From the NCBI GenBank assembly GCA_036785375.1, contig JAWMAR010000283.1, positions 372,001 to 436,000 of the forward strand: 64,000 nt of DNA, written 5' to 3'. Under the pieces are notes generated by a model. The model was not told where the DNA came from, made no database searches, and saw only the letters and a list, made by a program, of their open reading frames with translations. A program made the translations under genes and the position numbers. This document shows positions 7,236-64,000 of this stretch, piece after piece (position 1 is the first letter of the stretch; every line of letters starts with the position of its first letter). This stretch comes from Leucoraja ocellata (taxonomy: Eukaryota).

Positions 7236-8150
7236 TCTTATAGAGGTATACAAAATCATGAGAGGAATAGATCAGGTAAACACACACATTCTTTTGTCCA
7301 GAGTAGGGGAATCGAGAACCAGAGGACATAGGTTTAAAGTGAGGGGAGAAAGATTTAATGGGATAGAAACATAGAAAATAGGTGCAGGAGTAGGCCCTTC
7401 AAGCCTGGACCGCCATTCGATATGATCATGGCTGATCATCCAACTCGATATCCCATCCCTGCCTTCTCTCCATACCCCCTGAACCCTTTAGCCACAAGGG
7501 CTACATCGAACTCCCTCTTAAATATAGCCAATGAACTTGCCTCAACTACCTTCTGTGGCAGAGAATTCCACAGATTTACCACTCTCTGTGTAAAAAATGA
7601 TTTTCTCATCTCGGTCCTAAAAGACTTCCCTCTTATCCTTAAACTGTGACCCTTTGTTTTGGACTTCCCCAACATCAGGAATAATCTTTCTGCATCTAGC
7701 CTGTCCAACCCCATAAGAATTTTGTAAGTTTCTATAAGATCCCCCCTCAATCTTCTAAATTCTAGCGTGTACAAGCCGAGTCTATCCAGTCTTTCTTCAT
7801 ATGAAAGTCCTGCCATCCCAGGAATCAGTCTGGTGAACCTTCTCTGTACTCCCTCTATGGCAAGAATGTCTTTCCTCAGATTAGGAGAACAAAACTGTAC
7901 GCAATACTCCAGGTGTGGTCTCACCAAGACCCTGTACAACTGCAGTAGAACCTGAGGGGTAACTCTTTTACACAAAGGGTGGTGGGTGGGTGGAGGTAGT
8001 TGAGGCAGGTACTATCGCAATGTTTAAGAAACATTGACAGGTTTAGAGGGATATGGGCCCAAAGCAGGCAGGTGGGACTACTGTAGATGGGGCACGTTTG
8101 TCGGCGTGGGCAGGTTGGGCCGAAGGGCCTGTTTCCACGCTTTATGACAT
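7236..8150 (+). mobile_element. Older CR1 3' fragment, split by a younger CR1 insertion
   Basis: 7236-7362 (LIEVYKIMRGID...RTRGHRFKVRGERFN) resumes at about 7950 (aacctgaggggtaactcttttacacaaagggtggtg) and runs into the 3' tail. Confidence 0.8.
7363..7953 (-). mobile_element. Young CR1 LINE, 5'-truncated
   Basis: ORF 7436-7975 (LVRPHLEYCVQF...RRLRGDLIETYKI...FFTQRVVNLWNSLP) with an intact 3' tail ttctatgtttctat. Confidence 0.92.
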
Positions 8151-8556
8151 ATACATGATGCACCTTTATTTGTTCTATATATTTAACTCGTATTACCAAT
8201 GGAATCTTTAATATCTTGGCCAAGCTTGTTATTTGAAAGCATTCTGCCGTTTCTAACAAAGCAAAACAGGCTAGGTTGTGTATCAATATTCCACAATATT
8301 CCAATGTTGCATGATGAGATTGTTAATTCTAGTTATGGAATTCTGCCCGGATTTGCTGGATGACTAATTGCGAGATTGTCAGTCACTCATAATTATTTGA
8401 AGAAATTGGCCAACAATATCAGCATTCAAATTGTGCAATTAGAATCAGTGGAATTCTCTGAGTCACCCTGCTTCCCTGCAACTTTGTCATGTAAAAACAT
8501 GAGCGCTTCAACATTCAAATACATGAAGGATATAAAATGTTCACCCAATAGACAGA

Positions 8557-8584
8557 CTGAAGAGGGTTTCGACCCGAAACGTTG
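8557..8584 (+). ncRNA. Minimal type I hammerhead ribozyme core from a Penelope-like terminal repeat (fragment)
   Basis: CTGAAGA-GGGTTTCGACCC-GAAA-CGTT: CUGANGA box, stem II, GAAA box and palindromic ACGT helix III. Confidence 0.6.
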
Positions 8585-8589
8585 CAGAA

Positions 8590-8930
8590 CCCTAGTGTAC
8601 AGAGCCCTAGTGAGAGCACACCTGGAGTATTGTGTGCAGTTCTGGTCCCCTAATTTGAGGAAGGACATCCTTGCTACTGAGAGAGTGCAGCGTAGGTTTA
8701 CAAGGTTAATTCCCGGGATGGCGGGACTGTCATGTGCTGAGAGAATGGAGCGGCTGGGCTTGTACACTCTGGAGTTTGGAAGGATGAGAGGGGATCTTAT
8801 TGAAACATATAAGATTGTTAAGGGTTTGGACACGCTAGAGGCAGGAAACATGTTCCCGATGTTGGGGAAGTCCAGAACCAGGGGCTACAGTTTAAGAATA
8901 AGGCGTAAGCCATTTAGAACAGAGACGAGG
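8590..8930 (+). mobile_element. CR1 ORF2 fragment truncated at both ends
   Basis: YRALVRAHLEYCVQFWSP...RMRGDLIETYKI...RTRGYSLRI; no 3' tail. Confidence 0.88.
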
Positions 8931-9012
8931 TGGCTGCTCAAAATTATGGCCAGCTGTAATAAGAATGAATAGCAAAGAGATCCAACCACAAGATCCAAAC
9001 CACTGCAATTAT

Positions 9013-21463: not shown

Positions 21464-22814
21464 TTTTTTTTTTTTTTTAATATTTTTATTAGTAGACATA
21501 TTATAAAGTATAGTTACATATTATAGTAAAAAGACTTTTCATATACATCAGTCATACATTATTACAATTTTCAATTATCAATTACTTCTGCTTCTAGTGT
21601 TTTTATTTTTTTATAGAAAAAGAGAGAAAGAGAGGGTAGAAAGTTACAAATAAAAAATTAAAAAAACCAGAAAAACAAAGGAGGTGGAATGGATTACCTG
21701 TAATACGTCAATGGAGATAGGTTCGTAGATTATAAAGTATAGCTTTTCATCTGATCCTGAGTTCAAGTTTCAGTTGGGTCCTCGTGCTGTGCCAATCTAT
21801 CCCTTCAGATAGTTAATGAATGGAGCCCAGATTTTATCGAAAAGATCTTGTTTGTCCATTAAGACAAGTCTAATTCTTTCTAAGTATAGGGTCTCCGACA
21901 TTTCTGTAATCCACATTTTAATTGTGGGGGTTGTAGGGCCTTTCCAAAATTTTAATATTAATTTTTTCCCGATTATTATACTGTAGTCGAGGAAATTTCT
22001 TTAGTTTGTTGTGAGTGTTAAACTTTGTTCTGATATTCCAAGTATTATTAATTTTGTATCTGGGTCCAGTTTTGTATTAATAACTTCTGAAGTTATTTCA
22101 AAAATATCAGTCCAGAAATGTTTAAGTTTTATACAGTTTGCAAACGAGTGTGTTAAATTAGTCTCTAGATGTAGACATTTATCACAAATAGGAGAGATTT
22201 GTGGGAAGATTCTATTTAGTTTAATTTTATAGTAGTGTAGTCTATGTAAGACCTTAAATTGTATTAAAGTATGTCTGGCATTTAATGAACATTGATGTAT
22301 TTGTTGTAAACTTTCGTCCCACATATCTTTCGTTATAGGGTGACCTATTTCATTTTCCCATTTGTATCTATATGGTTCGGTCGGTGGTACCTCGTTGTTT
22401 AGTAGGGTGTTATAAATATAAGCTATTAGTTTTTCAGTATTAGGATGCTTGTTCAAACATTCATCAAGAATTTCTGATTCCCTACTCCTGAAGACTTGTG
22501 TATTAGATTTAACATAATCTCTAATTTGTAGATATCTGAAGAAATGATTTGAGTGCAGTCCATAATTCTGTTGTAACTCTTGAAATGAAAGAAAAGTGCC
22601 TTTCCCATAAAGATGTCCTATATTTTTGATTCCATAATTTTTCCATTGGGTGAATCCTTTGTCCATAAAGGATGATTTGAATAAAGGATTATTTACAATG
22701 GGAAGGCATAGTGGTATATTATTCAATTTTAAATCTTTTTTTATTTGTTTCCAAATTCGTATTCCACTATGTATTATGGGGTTTTCTTTATAGGTTTTTT
22801 TGTGCAGTTTTGTG
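21464..22814 (-). mobile_element. L1-clade LINE, 5'-truncated, with poly(A) tail and TSD
   Basis: ORF 22001-22726 has the zf-RVT region (IQFKVLHRLHY...CDKC...LTHSFANC); T16 run at 21463-21478 with AATAAA upstream on the minus strand; flanks gcgtcttacact (21452-21463) and gcatcttatact (22815-22826). Confidence 0.9.
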
Positions 22815-22959
22815 GCATCTTATACTATGATCAATCTGTGATAGTTGGCATGGATTTTTTAAGGGATTGCACTTAAATTTTTAAGTTAACAAAGGAATCA
22901 ACGAGAGCATTGGATTCATTTTCAAATGGCAGCCTGGTCAAAGAGGTAAATACACATGA

Positions 22960-30939: not shown

Positions 30940-32310
30940 TAATTTAGAGATGCAGTGAAAATTGGCCCTTCAGCCCACGCCAACCAGTGATCACCCCTAT
31001 ACTAGATCTACCCTACACACCAGGCACAATTTACAGAGGCTAATTAACCTACAAACATGCACATCTTTGGAATGCGGAAGGAAATTTCAGGCTCGATCAC
31101 GCTGAGCACCGGCTCCCCTCAAGGCTGTGTGCTCAGCCCGCTGTTGTTCACATTGCTCGCACATGACTGTGCTGCCAGATTCAGGGACGATAAGATCATA
31201 AAATTCGCGGATGACACAACAGTGGTGGGACTCATCAGCGGAGATGACGAATCAATGTACAGGGAGGAAGTAAAACAACTAGTGGACTAGTGCGGCAAAA
31301 ATAATCTAGAATTAAATGTCGACAAAACGAAGGAGATGGTTGCCGACTTCAGGAGGGCGCAGCCAAAGCATACATCCCTCAACATCAGTGGCACTGCAGT
31401 GGAGAGAGTGGAGAGCATAAAGTTCCTCGGTGTGCAAATTACAGACAGCCTCACCTGGTCCAGGAACACCACTGGGACCGTCAAACGGGCCCATCAGCGA
31501 CTGCACTTCCTGAGGAAACTAAAACAGGCCTCACTCCCCACCAACATCCTCAGGACTTCTGTACTCACGTACTGCATAAATACGTGGTACTCCACCTGCA
31601 ACTGCTCGGACAGGAAGGCTCTGCAGAGGGTAGTGAGGGGAGCAGAGAGGATCATTGGCGTCTCCCTACCCTCGGTACAAGAACTGTTCCAGAGCCGCTG
31701 TCTGAAAAAAGCTCAGAGAATTGTTAAGGACAAACTGCACCCCCTCCACATACACCTGGATCTCCTGCCATTAGGCAAGAGATATCGAAGCATCAACGCC
31801 CGGACTACAAGACTGCTAAACAGCTTCCTACCACAGGCTGTGAGGCTGCTAAACAGTCACTCTGTACTTACAGTCACTTGATTCTGCAGCTGGCACGGAC
31901 ACTTTAATAACTGGCACTGGCCACTCAAATCAGCTGCCCCGGACATTTTTATGATTGGTTTATTGTATTTTAACGTTGTGTTTTACCTGCTTTTAACTAT
32001 TTATTTATACTGTTCCATCAGGGACTGGATTGTTTTTAGTGTTATTATGTGTGAAACGCTTTAAATTTCATGTGCGATGCTCCGCTATTCCCTGGGAAAC
32101 GTCTTTTCATGTTGCACTGTACAACTGTTGCTTGCAAGATGACAATAAATGTTGATTGATTGATTGATTGATTGATTGCAATCAGAGCTCCCGGAGGAAA
32201 TCCACGTGGTCACAGGGAGAACGTGCAAACTCCATACAGACAAGACCCGTGGTCAGGAACGACCCTGGGTCTCTGGCGCTGTAAGGCAGCAACTCTCCCA
32301 CTGTGCCCCC
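30940..32310 (-). mobile_element. V-SINE split by a Rex1 insertion
   Basis: Tail half at 30940-31085 and head half at 32179-32310 rejoin within the V-domain. Confidence 0.8.
31086..32178 (+). mobile_element. Rex1/Babar LINE, 5'-truncated and relatively young
   Basis: RT motifs STGSPQGCVLSPLLF and KFADDTTVVGLI, one in-frame stop at 31288-31290, then KRAHQRLHFLRKLK; 3' end AATAAA + (GATT)n tail. Confidence 0.9.
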
Positions 32311-32721
32311 CTTCATTAGTAGAATTATTAGTGGAATTTTGAAAAAAGACACGGTTATACGGTAGCTTTCACATCTCTTTCAACAAAGAGCTTTACAGCT
32401 AACAAATGATTGAATGAAGATTGCTTTTGATGAAATATAGCCAGTAAGATACAAATATCAAGTTAAATTGTAAAATGGCACTATGAAACTGTTCAGGTAA
32501 GAATTTAATGAACCCTACAAACAGACAGAGATAGAAGCCAAGAAAACGTTCACAATTAGGAACAGAATTCAGATGCCATACTCCCAAATGTTCAGTACCA
32601 AAACAATCTTAGGAGGCAAAAACAAGGAACTGCAGATGCTGGCTTACAAAACAAAAGATGCAAAGAGCTGCAGTAACAGTAGGTTAGTCAGCATCACTGG
32701 AGAACAATTTTAGGAATCTTA

Positions 32722-33470
32722 GGTGGCCGATTAGAAAAAGGGGAGATGCAACGAGACCTGGGTGTCATGGTACACCAGTCATTGAAAGTAGGCATGCATG
32801 TGCAGCAGGCAGTGAAGAAAGCGAATGGTATGTTAGCATTCATAGCAAAAGGATTTGATTATAGGAGCAGGGAGGTTCTACTGCAGTTGTACAAGGTCTT
32901 GGTGAGACCACACCTGGAGTATTGCGAACAGTTTTGGTCACCTAATCTGAGGAAGGACATTCTTGCCATAGAGGGAGTACAGATAAGGTTCACCAGACTG
33001 ATTCCTGGGATGTCAGGACTTTCATATGAAGAAAGACTGGATAGACTTGGCTTGTACTCGCTAGAATTTAGAAGATTGAGGGGGGATCTTATAGAAACTT
33101 ACAAAATTCTTAAGGGGTTGGACAGGCTAGAGGCAGGAAGATTGTTCCCGATGTTGGGAAAGTCCAGAACAAGGGGTCACAGTTTAAGGATAAAGGGGAA
33201 ATCTTTTAGGACTGAGATGAGAAAAACATTTTTTACACAGAGTGGTGAATCTCTGGAATTCTCTGCCACACAATGTAGTTGAGGCCAGTTCATTGGCTAT
33301 ATTTCAGAGGGAGTTAGATGTGGCCCTTGTGGCTAAAGGGATCAGGGGGTATGGAGAGAAGGCAGGTACAGGAAACTGAGTTGGATGATCAGCCATGATC
33401 ATATTGAATGGCGGTGCAGGCTTGAAGGGCCGAATGGCCTATTCCTGCACCTATTTTCTATGTTTCTATG
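32722..33470 (+). mobile_element. Young CR1 LINE, 5'-truncated
   Basis: ORF 32746-33282 (RDLGV...AVKKANGMLAFI...LVRPHLEYC) with a frameshift near 33240 and an intact tail; very similar to 7363-7953; gaatct on both flanks (possible TSD). Confidence 0.92.
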
Positions 33471-52650: not shown

Positions 52651-54249
52651 CAGTGGCTTGCAAAAGTATTCATACCCCTTGAACTTTTCCACATTTTGTC
52701 ACGTTACAACCACAAACGTAAATGTATTTTATTGGGATTTTATGTGATAGACCAACACAAAGTGGCGCATAATTGTGAAGTGGAAGTAAAATGATACATG
52801 GTTTTCAAATTTTTTTACAAATAAAAAACTGAAAATTGTGGCGTGCAAAAGTATTCAGCCCCCTTTACTCTGATACCCCTAAATAAAATCCAGTTCAACC
52901 AATTGCCTTCAGAAGTCACCTAATTAGTAAATAGAGTCCACTTGTGTGTAATCTAAACTCAGTATAAATACAGCTGTTCTGTGAAGGCCTCAGAGGTTTG
53001 TTAGAGAACATTAGTGAACAAACAGCATCATGAAGCCCAAGGAACACACCAGACAGGTCAGGGATAAAGTTGTGGAGAAGTTTAAAGCAGGGTTAGGTTA
53101 TAAAAAAATATCCCAAGCTTTGAACATCTCACGGAGCACTGTTCAATCCATCATCCGAAAATGGAAAGAGTATGGCACAACTGCAAACCTACCAAGGCAT
53201 GGCCGTCCACCTAAACTGACAGGCCGGGCAAGGAGAGCATTGATCAGAGAAGCAGCCAAGAGGCCAATGGTAACTCTGGAGGAGCTGCAGAGATCCACAG
53301 CTCAGGTGGGAGAATCTGTCCACAGGACAGTCGTGCACTCCACAAATCGGGCCTTTATGGAAGAGTGGCAAGAAGAAAGTCGTTGTTGAAAAATAGCCAT
53401 AAGAAGTCCCGTTTGCAGTTTTCCACAAGCCATGTGGGGGACACAGCAAACAAGTGGAGGAAGGTGCTCTGGTCAGATGAGACCAAAATTGAAGTTTTTG
53501 GCCTAAATGCAAAACGCTATGTGTGGCGGAAAACTAACACTGCACATCACCCTGAACACACCATCCCCACTGTGAAACATGGTGGTGGCAGCATCATGCT
53601 GTGGGGATGCTTTTCTTCAGCAGGGACAGGGAAGCTGGTCAGAGTTGATGGGACGATGGATGGAGCCAAATACAGGGCAATCTTGGAAGAAAACCTGTTA
53701 AGAGTCTGCAAAAGACTTGAGACTGGGGCAGAGGTTCACCTTCCAGCAGGACAACAACCCTAAACATACAGCCAGAGCTACAATGGAATGGTTTAGATCA
53801 AAGCATATTCATGTGTTAGAATGGCCCAGTCAAAGTCCAGACCTAAATCCAATTGAGAATCTCTGGCAAGACTTGAAAATTGCTGTTCACAGACGCTCTC
53901 CATCCAATCTGACTGAGCTTGAGCTATTTTGCAAAGAAGAATGGGCAAAAAATTCAGTCTCTAGATGTGCAAAGCTGGTAGAGACATACCACAAAAGACT
54001 TGCAGTGAAAGGTGGTTCTACAAAGTATTGACTCAGGGGGGCTGAATACTTTTGCACGCCACACTTTGCAGTTTTTTATTTGTAAAAAAATTTGAAAACC
54101 ATGTATCATTTTCCTTCCACTTCACAATTATGCACCACTTTGTGTTGGTCGATCACATAAAATCCCAATAAAATACATTTACGTTTGTGGTTGTAACGTG
54201 ACAAAATGTGGAAAAGTTCAAGGGGTATGAAATCGTTTGCAAGCCACTG
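52651..54249 (+). mobile_element. Tc1/mariner DNA transposon, IR/DR type, Passport-like, full length (1599 bp)
   Basis: TA target duplication on both sides; TIRs of about 213 bp (52651-52863 and 54037-54249), each with two direct repeats (gcaaaagtattca). Confidence 0.96.
53030..54031 (+). pseudogene. Tc1 DD34E transposase with two frameshifts
   Basis: Three overlapping ORFs give paired-like HTH with [19 protein letters not shown] and SPDLNPIE (34 residues between the second D and E); frameshifts at about 53329 and about 53700. Confidence 0.95.
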
Positions 54250-60842: not shown

Positions 60843-61149
60843 TCTATTGCTCTATTTCATTACCCCTCAGATGCAATCATTTATTCTTTTAAGCAACAGA
60901 AATTCAGTTAAATAACGATCTAAGAAGAAAATCCAAAAGAAAGAAAACAGGAAGAAACAATGTGTTATTCAGAACATTTAGATGATAACTTGCATTTTAT
61001 CAGAACATGCAGATTCAATGAAACAGCAACGACACATCATCTTTGGTGTCTACGTTGCCATTTATCCCCCAGTCATCCTCACTAAAATACGGAGTTGGGC
61101 CAATCAAACTGCTGCTTAAAGAAACAGGCTGCATACAAAGAATTGACAG

Positions 61150-61821
61150 TGTTACAAAGGAACAGGTTCAAGGATCTGACCAGTAGAACATAAAAAGGCT
61201 CACTCGTCTGTTTAGTTACAACTCCGTTTTATTGGCAATAGAGAACAAAAACAATACTTGTCTTGGTATGCGCGGGATCCGGTTTACTGCAACACACCTC
61301 TCTCGCTCTCTGCCTCCGTCCATGGCGCTGATCGCGACTCAGCTCGTCGGTGAACCACTCTCGTACATAAACTCATTTATGGCTTCCTGGCGCCTGCCTT
61401 TATACAGATAATAAATCAGCCGTTGAAATATCCACCGATATGTCCTGAGCCCATAGCGCTGCTCCCAAATTCAAACTATAACCAATGGCAGAGGCACGCA
61501 TCCGAGTGAGCTCCCCCACCGGGAACAAAGCGCTATCAACCGCAGACTGGCACGTAAAGCAATACACAACGCTACAAATGGCGCACAAATCAATACACAC
61601 CGCGCTACAGTCTTGGCGCGCAAAGCAATACATACAGCACTTTGTCGCACAAAGGTTTAAAAAGAGTGCTGTTGGCTTAACGCGTGGGAATTTAAACAAA
61701 GAGCTGCCGGCTGCAGCGCTAAATATAGCACTACCGGCCGTAGCGCTATGGGCTTTAAACATAGCGCTATGGCTACAGCGCTATGGGTCACAGACTGTTC
61801 AGGCAAAATTCTCGTATAATA
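61150..61821 (-). repeat. 3' LTR (672 bp)
   Basis: Alignable along its length with 62867-63555; TATAAA (about 61399-61404) and AATAAA (61228-61233) on the minus strand; terminal TG mutated to TA. Confidence 0.9.
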
Positions 61822-61832
61822 TTCCACCCCTC
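61822..61832 (-). promoter_or_regulatory. Polypurine tract
   Basis: GAGGGGTGGAA on the minus strand directly abutting the 3' LTR. Confidence 0.75.
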
Positions 61833-61849
61833 GAACAGTCTGGTTATCG

Positions 61850-62113
61850 TCACATCCGGCCCGCAGGGATTAACTCGTTACATCCAGCCCACAGGCTGTA
61901 GTAAAGTCCACGTGGTCGCGATGCCAATCTGCACATCCAACGTCGTAATATTATGGCCAACAAGATTGTCCCAATGGATAGTCCCCAGTGCATCACAGTT
62001 GTCCACCATCCTCCCGAGAGATTGTAGTCGTGCTACTGTTCTCCGACCCTTCAAATCTTCGCTACGGCTTCCTGGATGTGGTCAGCGAAGTTGGTGATGT
62101 TCTCTTTTATCCC
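61850..62113 (-). pseudogene. Retroviral Env TM C-terminal remnant (putative)
   Basis: GIKENITNFADHIQEAVAKI*RVGEQ*HDYNLSGGWWTTVMHWGLSIGTILLAIILRRWMC: N-glycosylation sequon, heptad-like helix, Trp-rich segment, hydrophobic span and basic stop-transfer, located just before the PPT. Confidence 0.6.
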
Positions 62114-62790
62114 ACTCAGGTTCAAACCAGTCACCAAATCTGTATGACCACGCATGGTACAAATTAACTTGTTTTGTCGGAGGTCCCAAACCTTAATGAC
62201 ATAATTAATAACACCAGAGATAATCTGATTGCTTGTGTCATTAAACGTTACTGCCAATACTCGGTACATGTTTTGAAATATATGGATTGCAGCCTTCTAC
62301 CAAATGTCCTATAGCTTCACTGTTTTGTCGTCGCTTCCTGTTCAGACCAACTGTGGTCGCTGTCCGGCTGGATAACATGAATTCACAAAGGATGGGTGAC
62401 CGTTAAATCTCGTGATTCTTTCACCCGTTTCACTGTCCCACACTGCTACAGTTTGTCTGTTGATGCCGGAAAAAGCATGCTGCCATCTGTGTTATAATGC
62501 AATTCCATCACTGCTCCACTGTGACCTTCCAATTTAGCAAAATTATCGCAGTCAATATATATATTCCAAAACAATACAAGTCGATCAAATCCTGCAGATG
62601 CCAGTGCTGATCCACATGAGTGAAATTTACAACAGTAAACTTCTCCCTCGTGACCCTGTAAATGCATTAGAGGAGCTTAAAGACTCAAGGTTCTTGGTCC
62701 CACCTGCAGCATGACCTGCTGCGGGCTCCCCTGCACCGAGGGTAGCAGCTTGTTGCAGGGGTGCTTGGCCTGCACCAGTGCCATCCCGCC
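62114..62790 (-). pseudogene. SNRNP40: Processed SNRNP40 (U5 snRNP 40-kDa WD40 protein) fragment
   Basis: GHEGEVYCCKFH...LASAGFDRL...GHSGAVMELHYNTDGSMLF.ASTDK/VAVWDSETGER...VLAVTFNDTS.QIISG...KVWDLRQNKL..TMRGH; contiguous and intronless; stop at 62677-62679, frameshift at about 62451, further stops at 62290-62350. Confidence 0.95.
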
Positions 62791-62846
62791 CGCTATCTTC
62801 TATTTATTTATTTATTTATTTATTTATTTTCTATTCTGTTCGTCAG

Positions 62847-62864
62847 ATCCTGCCGACTACACCA
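62847..62864 (-). promoter_or_regulatory. Primer-binding site complementary to tRNA-Ser
   Basis: Minus strand TGGTGTAGTCGGCAGGAT, 2 nt after the 5' LTR; 17/18 match to the recalled vertebrate tRNA-Ser 3' end ATCCTGCCGACTACGCCA. Confidence 0.88.
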
Positions 62865-62866
62865 AA

Positions 62867-63555
62867 TGTTACAAGGGAGGTTCAAGAATCTGACTAGTAG
62901 AACAGAAAAAGCCTCATTCATCTGTTTAGTTACAAATCAGTTTTATTGGCAAGCGAGAACAAAAACAATACTTGTCTTGGTATACGTGGAGTCTGGTTTA
63001 CAGCAACACACCACTCTCTCTCAGCATCCATCCGCGATGCTGATCGCGACTCAGCCCATCGGTGAACCCCTCTCGTACATGAACTAACTTATGGCATCCT
63101 GGCACCTGCCTTTATACAGGTAAGAAATCAACCGTTGAAATAACCGCCGGTAAGTCCAAGCCAATAGCGTTGCTCCCAAATTCAAACTATAACCAATTGC
63201 AGGGAACTGCATCCGAGCAAGCCCCTCCCCCCGCTTTGGGAACAAAGCGCTATCAGCCGCAGACTGGCGTGTAAAGCAATATACAGCGCTACAGACCTGG
63301 CGCGCAATCCAATACACACAGCGCTACAGTCTTGGCACGCAAAGCAATACACACAGCTTTGCCAGTTTGGCACACAAAGGTTTAAACAGAGCGCTGTCGG
63401 TTTAGCATGTTGGAATTTAAACAAAGAGCTGTCGGCTGCAGCGCTATGGGTTCTAAATATAGCACTACCGGCCACAGCGCTATGGGCTTTAAACATAGAG
63501 CTAATGCCACAGCGCTATGGGTCACAGACTGTTCGGGCAAAATTCTCGTATAACA
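62867..63555 (-). repeat. 5' LTR (689 bp)
   Basis: TG...CA termini with a 5-bp inverted repeat; TATAAA at 63111-63116 and AATAAA at 62942-62947 on the minus strand. Confidence 0.9.
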
Positions 63556-64000
63556 CACACGATGCTGCATTCAGAAGTAAGTCATTCTTTGTAAAAGCCT
63601 AAATTCTGTAGTCACCTCCGCAGCCTAACGATTTAACAACAAGATAATATTGAAATATCAGTATAGAAACATATTAATAAGCAATGTCCATGAGGCCAAG
63701 TGTGCTTTACATAAGGCCTCATAAGTAGAAGAGACCTTAGATGTTGCAAATGAATGTTGAACACGATAAATCTATATTCAGTTGTTTTTGCCACTGTAGA
63801 TGGAGCAGAGGAAAACAAGCAAGTGGCAGGTTTGATTCGTGTGGTATAGAGATGCCCTGGAGGTGAGGGAGAAAGGAAAATGTCAGTCAAGGCTGGGTAG
63901 ATAGGGACACCAGGACCTTGTGGATCAGAAATGGATCAGGTCTTGGTGGTTCAGACTCCTAAGAGCCTGACCTACTCATGCAGTTCTCCTTCAGTACTGG

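Follow-up and report, generated by a model that had tools for sequence, protein, structure and literature searches.

How does a stretch of coding sequence from SNRNP40, a housekeeping subunit of the spliceosome, come to lie between the two LTRs of a retrovirus-like element in a skate, and did it spread from there? The element in question occupies positions 61150 to 63555 (minus strand) of the window, as we call the whole stretch of 64,000 nucleotides of Leucoraja ocellata DNA that was analysed. An earlier note on the window had seen in it the fossil of a defective transducing virus or a non-autonomous LTR family that captured a spliced host mRNA in place of gag and pol.

Structure of the window copy and its junctions

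Read on the minus strand, from 63555 to 61150, the element consists of an LTR, a tRNA-Ser primer binding site (PBS), the SNRNP40 piece, a remnant of the env transmembrane subunit (TM), a polypurine tract (PPT) and a second LTR (Table 1). The sequence thereby confirms the order that the earlier note had claimed, with Pfam and the env relatives identifying the tail. No gene is left in the element, a defunct copy of an old retrovirus-like element of fish. Its PBS was compared with the sequence expected from the tRNA-Ser(AGA) gene in the same genome, and the near-complete match bears out the proposed serine primer. No host gene surrounding the element was identified within the window, which also contains what we take to be a piece of a Tc1-like transposase and remnants of LINEs, some of them CR1-like (7436-8972, 22001-22819, 31291-33282, 53018-53763).

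Table 1. Features of the SNRNP40-carrying element in window coordinates
Feature	Position	Strand	Remarks
5' LTR	62867..63555	-	689 bp, TG...CA; TATAAA at 63116, AATAAA at 62947
PBS	62847..62864	-	17/18 bases match 3' end of host tRNA-Ser(AGA) gene
Short leader	62800..62846	-	overwritten by private (TAAA)n run at about 62803-62832
Intronless SNRNP40 coding piece	62112..62799	-	residues ~8-235 of 348
3' switch point	62112..62120	-	short stretch common to env of SNRNP40-free relatives
env transmembrane-subunit remnant	61833..62111	-	in-frame 150-base deletion near 62103
PPT	61822..61832	-	abuts 3' LTR
3' LTR	61150..61821	-	672 bp; K2P 0.136 from 5' LTR (583 matching columns, 82 mismatches)
Decayed 5-bp TSD	halves 63556..63560 and 61145-61149	- (first half)	3/5 bases match

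A leader of about 60 bp with a (TAAA)n run had been described as part of the element. The run is present in the window but is not a trait of the family, because among the 35 loci that retain both the PBS and the start codon it occurs in a single one; it is therefore a local microsatellite, and the same count led us to reject the idea that it is a relic of poly(A). At the same place, 27 of these 35 loci have a leader with about six codons from the start of the gag-like frame of the helper.

The best named PDB match of the cargo is human U5-40K. In a protein search it matches SNRNP40 residues 4-124 in one frame and 115-239 in another, and in the tested frame it agrees with the Amblyraja SNRNP40 protein at 83%. 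The window cargo contains four stops and one frameshift, its first ATG (62784) corresponds to Met11 of the host protein, and the WD40 propeller lacks its last third. About 228 SNRNP40 codons are contiguous in the cargo; in the parent gene, which we assume to have ten exons after human SNRNP40, an intron separates the last two exons (C25:7308036-7309142). Parent exon 9 starts 360 bp past a 200-N scaffold gap. Exons 1-8 are absent from the 250 kb read upstream of exon 9 and from the 116 scored of 439 candidates, and four sequence patterns gave no match; these exons probably sit in the scaffold gap. Because they were not found, the loss of introns and the host side of both microhomologies are read from the protein.

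The host SNRNP40 protein reads ...GLALSG where the cargo ends, and Leu-Ser-Gly is present at the 3' switch point in the host protein and in env alike. SNRNP40 copies and env-only relatives have CCCTGAGT in common, just before the common env sequence. The 3' junction falls on a stretch of 9-10 bases that is also found in the env-only relatives, as template switching predicts; this microsimilarity was seen in the DNA on the env side and in the protein on the host side. SNRNP40 thus stops in the middle of its coding sequence where the element resumes, as had been claimed. The longest A run at the 3' junction is four in 43 of 45 loci, and the cargo has neither a poly(A) tail nor a TSD of its own, the TSD flanking the whole element, which upholds the earlier observation of the window copy. 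On the 5' side, gag-bearing copies have the same leader, and the agreement extends to about codon six of a long gag-like frame. Since leader and env tail match those of gag-bearing and env-only relatives, gag, pol and the env surface unit (SU) have been replaced and not interrupted.

In SNRNP40-free relatives, the env transmembrane subunit is detected by Pfam (TLV_coat, E about 1e-5) and reads ...DALSGVKEAITEL...LQNRMALD...CX6CC in natural copies. The window's own tail gives no Pfam match. It is assigned to env because the longer relatives match TLV_coat and the window copy is devoid of a 150-base piece thereof, so that the env-like tail of the earlier note is env by way of these relatives but not by its own profile. 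The deletion took the LQNR..LD/CX6CC part and left a hydrophobic stretch near 62002-61946. It is in frame and found in 48 of 67 loci; the short-tail form is the commoner one, and the long tail with the immunosuppressive-domain motif is present in three loci. The long-tail copies L013 and L030 have 7/14 host-like residues, whereas the median among short-tail copies is about 1. The long form is therefore the earlier branch, and copying went along with change in the element.

Copy number and age of the family

Searching the 3.4-Gb assembly with the cargo gave at least 42 matches at the DNA level (40 of 114 candidates scored) and at least 118 at the protein level (116 of 439 candidates scored). 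Retroviral parts lie beside the cargo in 64 of the 67 loci examined, and on both sides in 47. Dropping nine loci as duplicates leaves about 58 distinct loci, which is a lower bound. The same SNRNP40/env junction is present in 45 of these 58, and the junction motif is missing from the other 13, most of which are truncated or have a deletion. Multiple loci with an identical junction were what the earlier note had proposed to look for as the sign of replication as a unit. In the ten distinct loci with both ends located, the 5-bp TSDs are perfect in five, match at 4/5 bases in three and at 3/5 in two; their sequence differs at each of the ten loci, and registers of 4 bp and 6 bp match at no more than two bases. 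The differing 5-bp TSDs therefore mark separate insertions made by an integrase, and the chimera spread as a unit. The SNRNP40 family consists of many integrase-made insertions and has no enzymes of its own.

Many loci are doubled, with flanks that are 95-100% identical; the two members of a pair often lie on the same contig at a distance of a few hundred kb, and an inverted arrangement is frequent. Examples are C283:48336 and C283:434110 (the window locus), and loci on C21, C31, C35, C159 and C345. The pair that includes the window locus is 97.6% identical over 3.7 kb, and the twin copy on the same contig (L002) has a TSD of 4/5 matching bases versus 3/5 in the window copy. The doubled loci look like retained haplotypes or an effect of the assembly, by which the raw copy counts are roughly doubled.

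The chimera is also found in a second skate. The RefSeq model XP_055494434.1 (P0067) of Leucoraja erinacea has the same start methionine, and its SNRNP40 part runs into the same env remnant. At about 10 positions that differ from Amblyraja, the majority of copies carry the P0067 residue. A search with the junction region for further chimeric proteins gave only P0067 among six candidates. One further locus of the L. ocellata assembly, L147 (C125:1664696), has the same LTR and PBS, the leader and the env TM tail, and between them about 900 bases that match no query and could be another cargo.

The alignment comprises 47 of the 58 loci, the other 11 being too short or interrupted; for the tree and the indel counts, ten poorly aligned rows were left out and 37 copies used. 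Compared with the commonest letter of each column, the copies have a median divergence of 7.9% (42 copies), and the tree is star-like (internal 0.13, terminal 2.79). The LTR pairs of eight distinct loci differ by a K2P of 0.11-0.23 with a median of about 0.16. If a rate of 1-2e-9 per site per year is assumed, which is not derived from skates, the family would be 40-80 million years old; the twin copies differ by about 2%, which adds noise to this estimate.

Putative helper and probable origin of the chimera

Gag-protease copies with related LTRs are present on C16 (L049), C3 (L100/L101), C55 (L098), C159 (L102) and C345 (L104), the RVP match having an E of 5e-6. In the C3 form, the gag-protease part is followed by a short tail end and an LTR, and neither pol nor env was seen in these deleted forms. 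Integrase-env remnants with related LTRs lie on C145 and C190, more distant ones on C626 and C1210. The PBS and the tail are related as well. Among the relatives, Pfam detects RVP, TLV_coat and, weakly, rve; 31 of the 35 helper frames give no Pfam match. These relatives support the amplification with a helper that the earlier note had considered possible. The check for a full gag-pol-env provirus with the same LTR thus yielded both kinds of remnants but no single copy with gag, pol and env, and the best pol remnants are mostly stop-laden.

The nearest pol relatives in the databases come from ray, shark, turtle, bichir, seahorse and caecilian. Related pol proteins of the stingray Hypanus (P0093) and the shark Carcharodon (P0095) mean that the retroviral lineage is wider than the skates. 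A dUTPase follows the integrase in two of five database relatives scanned and was not seen among the 35 frames of the skate remnants. Judged from its sequence remnants, the 5-bp TSD together with the pol relatives points to a class III (ERV3-like) retrovirus as the putative helper, a class assignment whose TSD part also fits ERV4, which likewise makes 5-bp TSDs. A tRNA-Ser primer is used by HERV-S. For ERV3, Table 1 of PMC4299795 gives a 5-bp TSD and a dUTPase after the integrase, with some lineages being without the latter.

Database searches added little to this assignment: the clusters that an atlas search hit with the gag-like frame were either unnamed or unrelated, the RNaseH-integrase frame found no longer protein and no PDB match, and a second pol frame hit only generic integrases in the PDB. 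The distant env-bearing relative recurs on small contigs with similar surroundings (C626, C1210, C677 and others; loci L117, L119, L121-L125, L127, L128, L130-L133 and L135-L137), and was possibly amplified inside a larger repeat unit. There are also many open pol-like frames of more than 900 aa with 24-32% identity to the query (e.g. C2043, C4555, C2241), which point to younger, unrelated LTR families of the same genome.

Very probably, the window element belongs to a non-autonomous family with dozens of loci that was born once by a switch of reverse transcriptase onto SNRNP40 mRNA and was multiplied in trans by a helper, with the SNRNP40 piece as neutral cargo. Template-switch capture and a non-autonomous family, as the earlier note had supposed, are supported by the common junctions, the independent TSDs, the replacement of the internal genes and the absence of poly(A). 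A spliced SNRNP40 mRNA would have been co-packaged in a particle of a class-III-like retrovirus. Reverse transcriptase would first have switched in env onto this mRNA and a second time back to the virus near gag codon 6, by which gag, pol and the env surface unit would have been removed and the PBS, PPT and LTRs kept. Helper Gag-Pol could then have packaged and integrated the chimera in trans, with a burst of copying tens of millions of years ago.

In none of the 47 aligned copies is the cargo intact, and for non-CpG cargo variants omega is 1.02, 1.08, 1.08 and 1.17 in variants of 1, 2, 3-4 and at least 5 loci, respectively. With all copies broken and omega at about 1, the cargo looks like a neutral passenger, as far as can be judged from the copies. 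The boldest idea, which we regard as unlikely, takes the opposite side: a helper-dependent skate transducing retrovirus whose sole product was a membrane-anchored, truncated SNRNP40 joined in frame to the immunosuppressive domain of env, its cargo being only one of a number from splicing factors that were favoured and amplified by LTR elements. SLU7, a top retrocopy parent in cartilaginous fishes, would be another such cargo. Quite improbable, too, is that the founder was a functional transducing virus that expressed an in-frame SNRNP40-EnvTM fusion, which at first still had the immunosuppressive domain and a membrane anchor and which aided the spread as v-onc genes do. The reading frame provides the arguments for such a fusion. 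The frame is kept at the capture junction and again by the later env deletion, which the passenger model has to leave to chance. The natural long-tail copies L113 and L120 as well as P0067 are in frame across the junction, the deletion is of 150 bases with respect to three SNRNP40-bearing long copies, and a stop is the commonest codon in none of the 308 codon columns from the ATG through the tail. In addition, env-tail variants of 3-4 loci lean towards synonymous changes (omega 0.57, p=0.07). However, an undisrupted stem would be no surprise by chance (P about 0.45 for no stop in 14 changes), the cargo omega is about 1 in every frequency class, and the branch from the long to the short form has 14 nonsynonymous and 5 synonymous changes, near the neutral ratio of 3.7:1. 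About a dozen family-wide changes affect residues common to Amblyraja and Hypanus, and it also speaks against a function that the propeller is incomplete. The cargo lies out of frame with the gag start, behind a six-codon upstream frame, and a frameshifting tail deletion of 50 bases is common to three loci. There is a small chance that the fusion protein mattered early on.

Very improbable is an origin in two steps, in which a LINE would have placed a processed pseudogene of SNRNP40 within a provirus or next to one, with later deletions or read-through packaging yielding the compact chimera that amplified. In favour of this, the window is rich in LINE remnants, CR1-type ones among them, poly(A) and TSD could have been lost to later deletions, and on the host side the junctions are known from the protein only. 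Against it, among the 116 candidates no copy outside the parent contains SNRNP40 residues 240-348, the 3' end halts mid-CDS on the stretch common to env, and the basal long-tail copies already carry the same junction. At high identity, the 3' third of SNRNP40 is confined to the parent gene (116/116 candidates), and thus no poly(A)-anchored retrocopy turned up. It is next to inconceivable that the copy number is an artefact of the assembly or of segmental duplication of one locus: many loci, the window locus included, are paired as described, but about 58 loci with the median divergence given above and different TSDs remain after removing the pairs, and the chimera is also present in an independent Leucoraja assembly. 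As the source of the whole family, duplication is refuted; the pairs roughly double the raw counts.

Significance and comparison with known systems

The capture of SNRNP40 by a helper-dependent element, as we prefer to read it, would make the skate family a record of rare completeness for gene capture by a retrovirus in a cartilaginous fish: the switch point, early and late forms, remnants of the helper and several dozen insertions that can be dated are all preserved. A single capture event would have sufficed for dozens of 'processed pseudogenes', and retrocopy counts would be affected by such LTR-borne amplification. The copies have misled annotation, the RefSeq protein XP_055494434.1 being named 'SNRNP40-like'. 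In addition, the insertions could serve as presence/absence markers in skate phylogeny. In a 2026 vertebrate survey (10.64898/2026.06.26.734816), the top retrocopy parents of cartilaginous fishes are the odd set of MIPOL1, SUDS3, SDF2L1, SLU7 and ZNF276. The available part of its text attributes the repertoires to expression in the germline, to non-LTR elements and to selection, and makes no appeal to amplification by LTR elements (10.64898/2026.06.26.734816). For these odd parents, LTR-borne amplification would be a directly testable alternative.

The 5-bp TSD is common to the skate family and the env-bearing class III ERVs (ERV3/ERV-L-like), and the nearest pol relatives from shark, ray, turtle, bichir and caecilian include some with a dUTPase after the integrase. 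Acutely transforming (v-onc) retroviruses are helper-dependent and have host coding sequence in place of viral genes. The earlier note had drawn this parallel, and it holds for the structure, as the skate family also has host coding sequence that replaces viral genes, in frame with a piece of env. It fails for the cargo, which is intact in no aligned copy and shows no sign of selection. RSV and HZ4-FeSV are mentioned as carriers of v-onc genes in PMC4299795.

That no such element had been described in cartilaginous fish, as the earlier note believed, is right insofar as no published account of a SNRNP40-carrying skate family was found in the open literature, where Repbase/Dfam and preprint supplements could list one; the kind of event, however, is already described (PMC4299795, PMC5131818). 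In crocodilians, CrocERV31 captured nectin3 and CrocERV29 the KIT-ligand (Chong et al. 2014, PMC4299795), and as in the skate family the host mRNA lies inside an ERV and was copied along to several loci. The crocodilian captures are reported with six and nine copies, respectively, pol or all genes kept, intact ORFs and purifying selection (PMC4299795). In contrast, the skate family is without gag, pol and env SU, has at least about 58 loci and decayed neutrally.

For human FAM8A1 in HERV-K, Jamain 2001 is reportedly the work cited. This case is among the LTR-mediated retrocopies of animals treated by Tan et al. (2016, PMC5131818), in which a partial mRNA takes the place of the internal region, both LTRs are kept, the switch point has microsimilarity and poly(A) is absent. 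The skate element agrees with them in these respects, with the microsimilarity seen at the 3' switch point, host sequence replacing the internal genes and the PBS and PPT being kept. Further rounds of copying of LTR retrocopies have been proposed in the same paper, which describes mostly single young loci (PMC5131818). The skate family, in contrast, displays such further rounds: it is old and multi-copy, has two structural forms and is also found in the assembly of a second skate.
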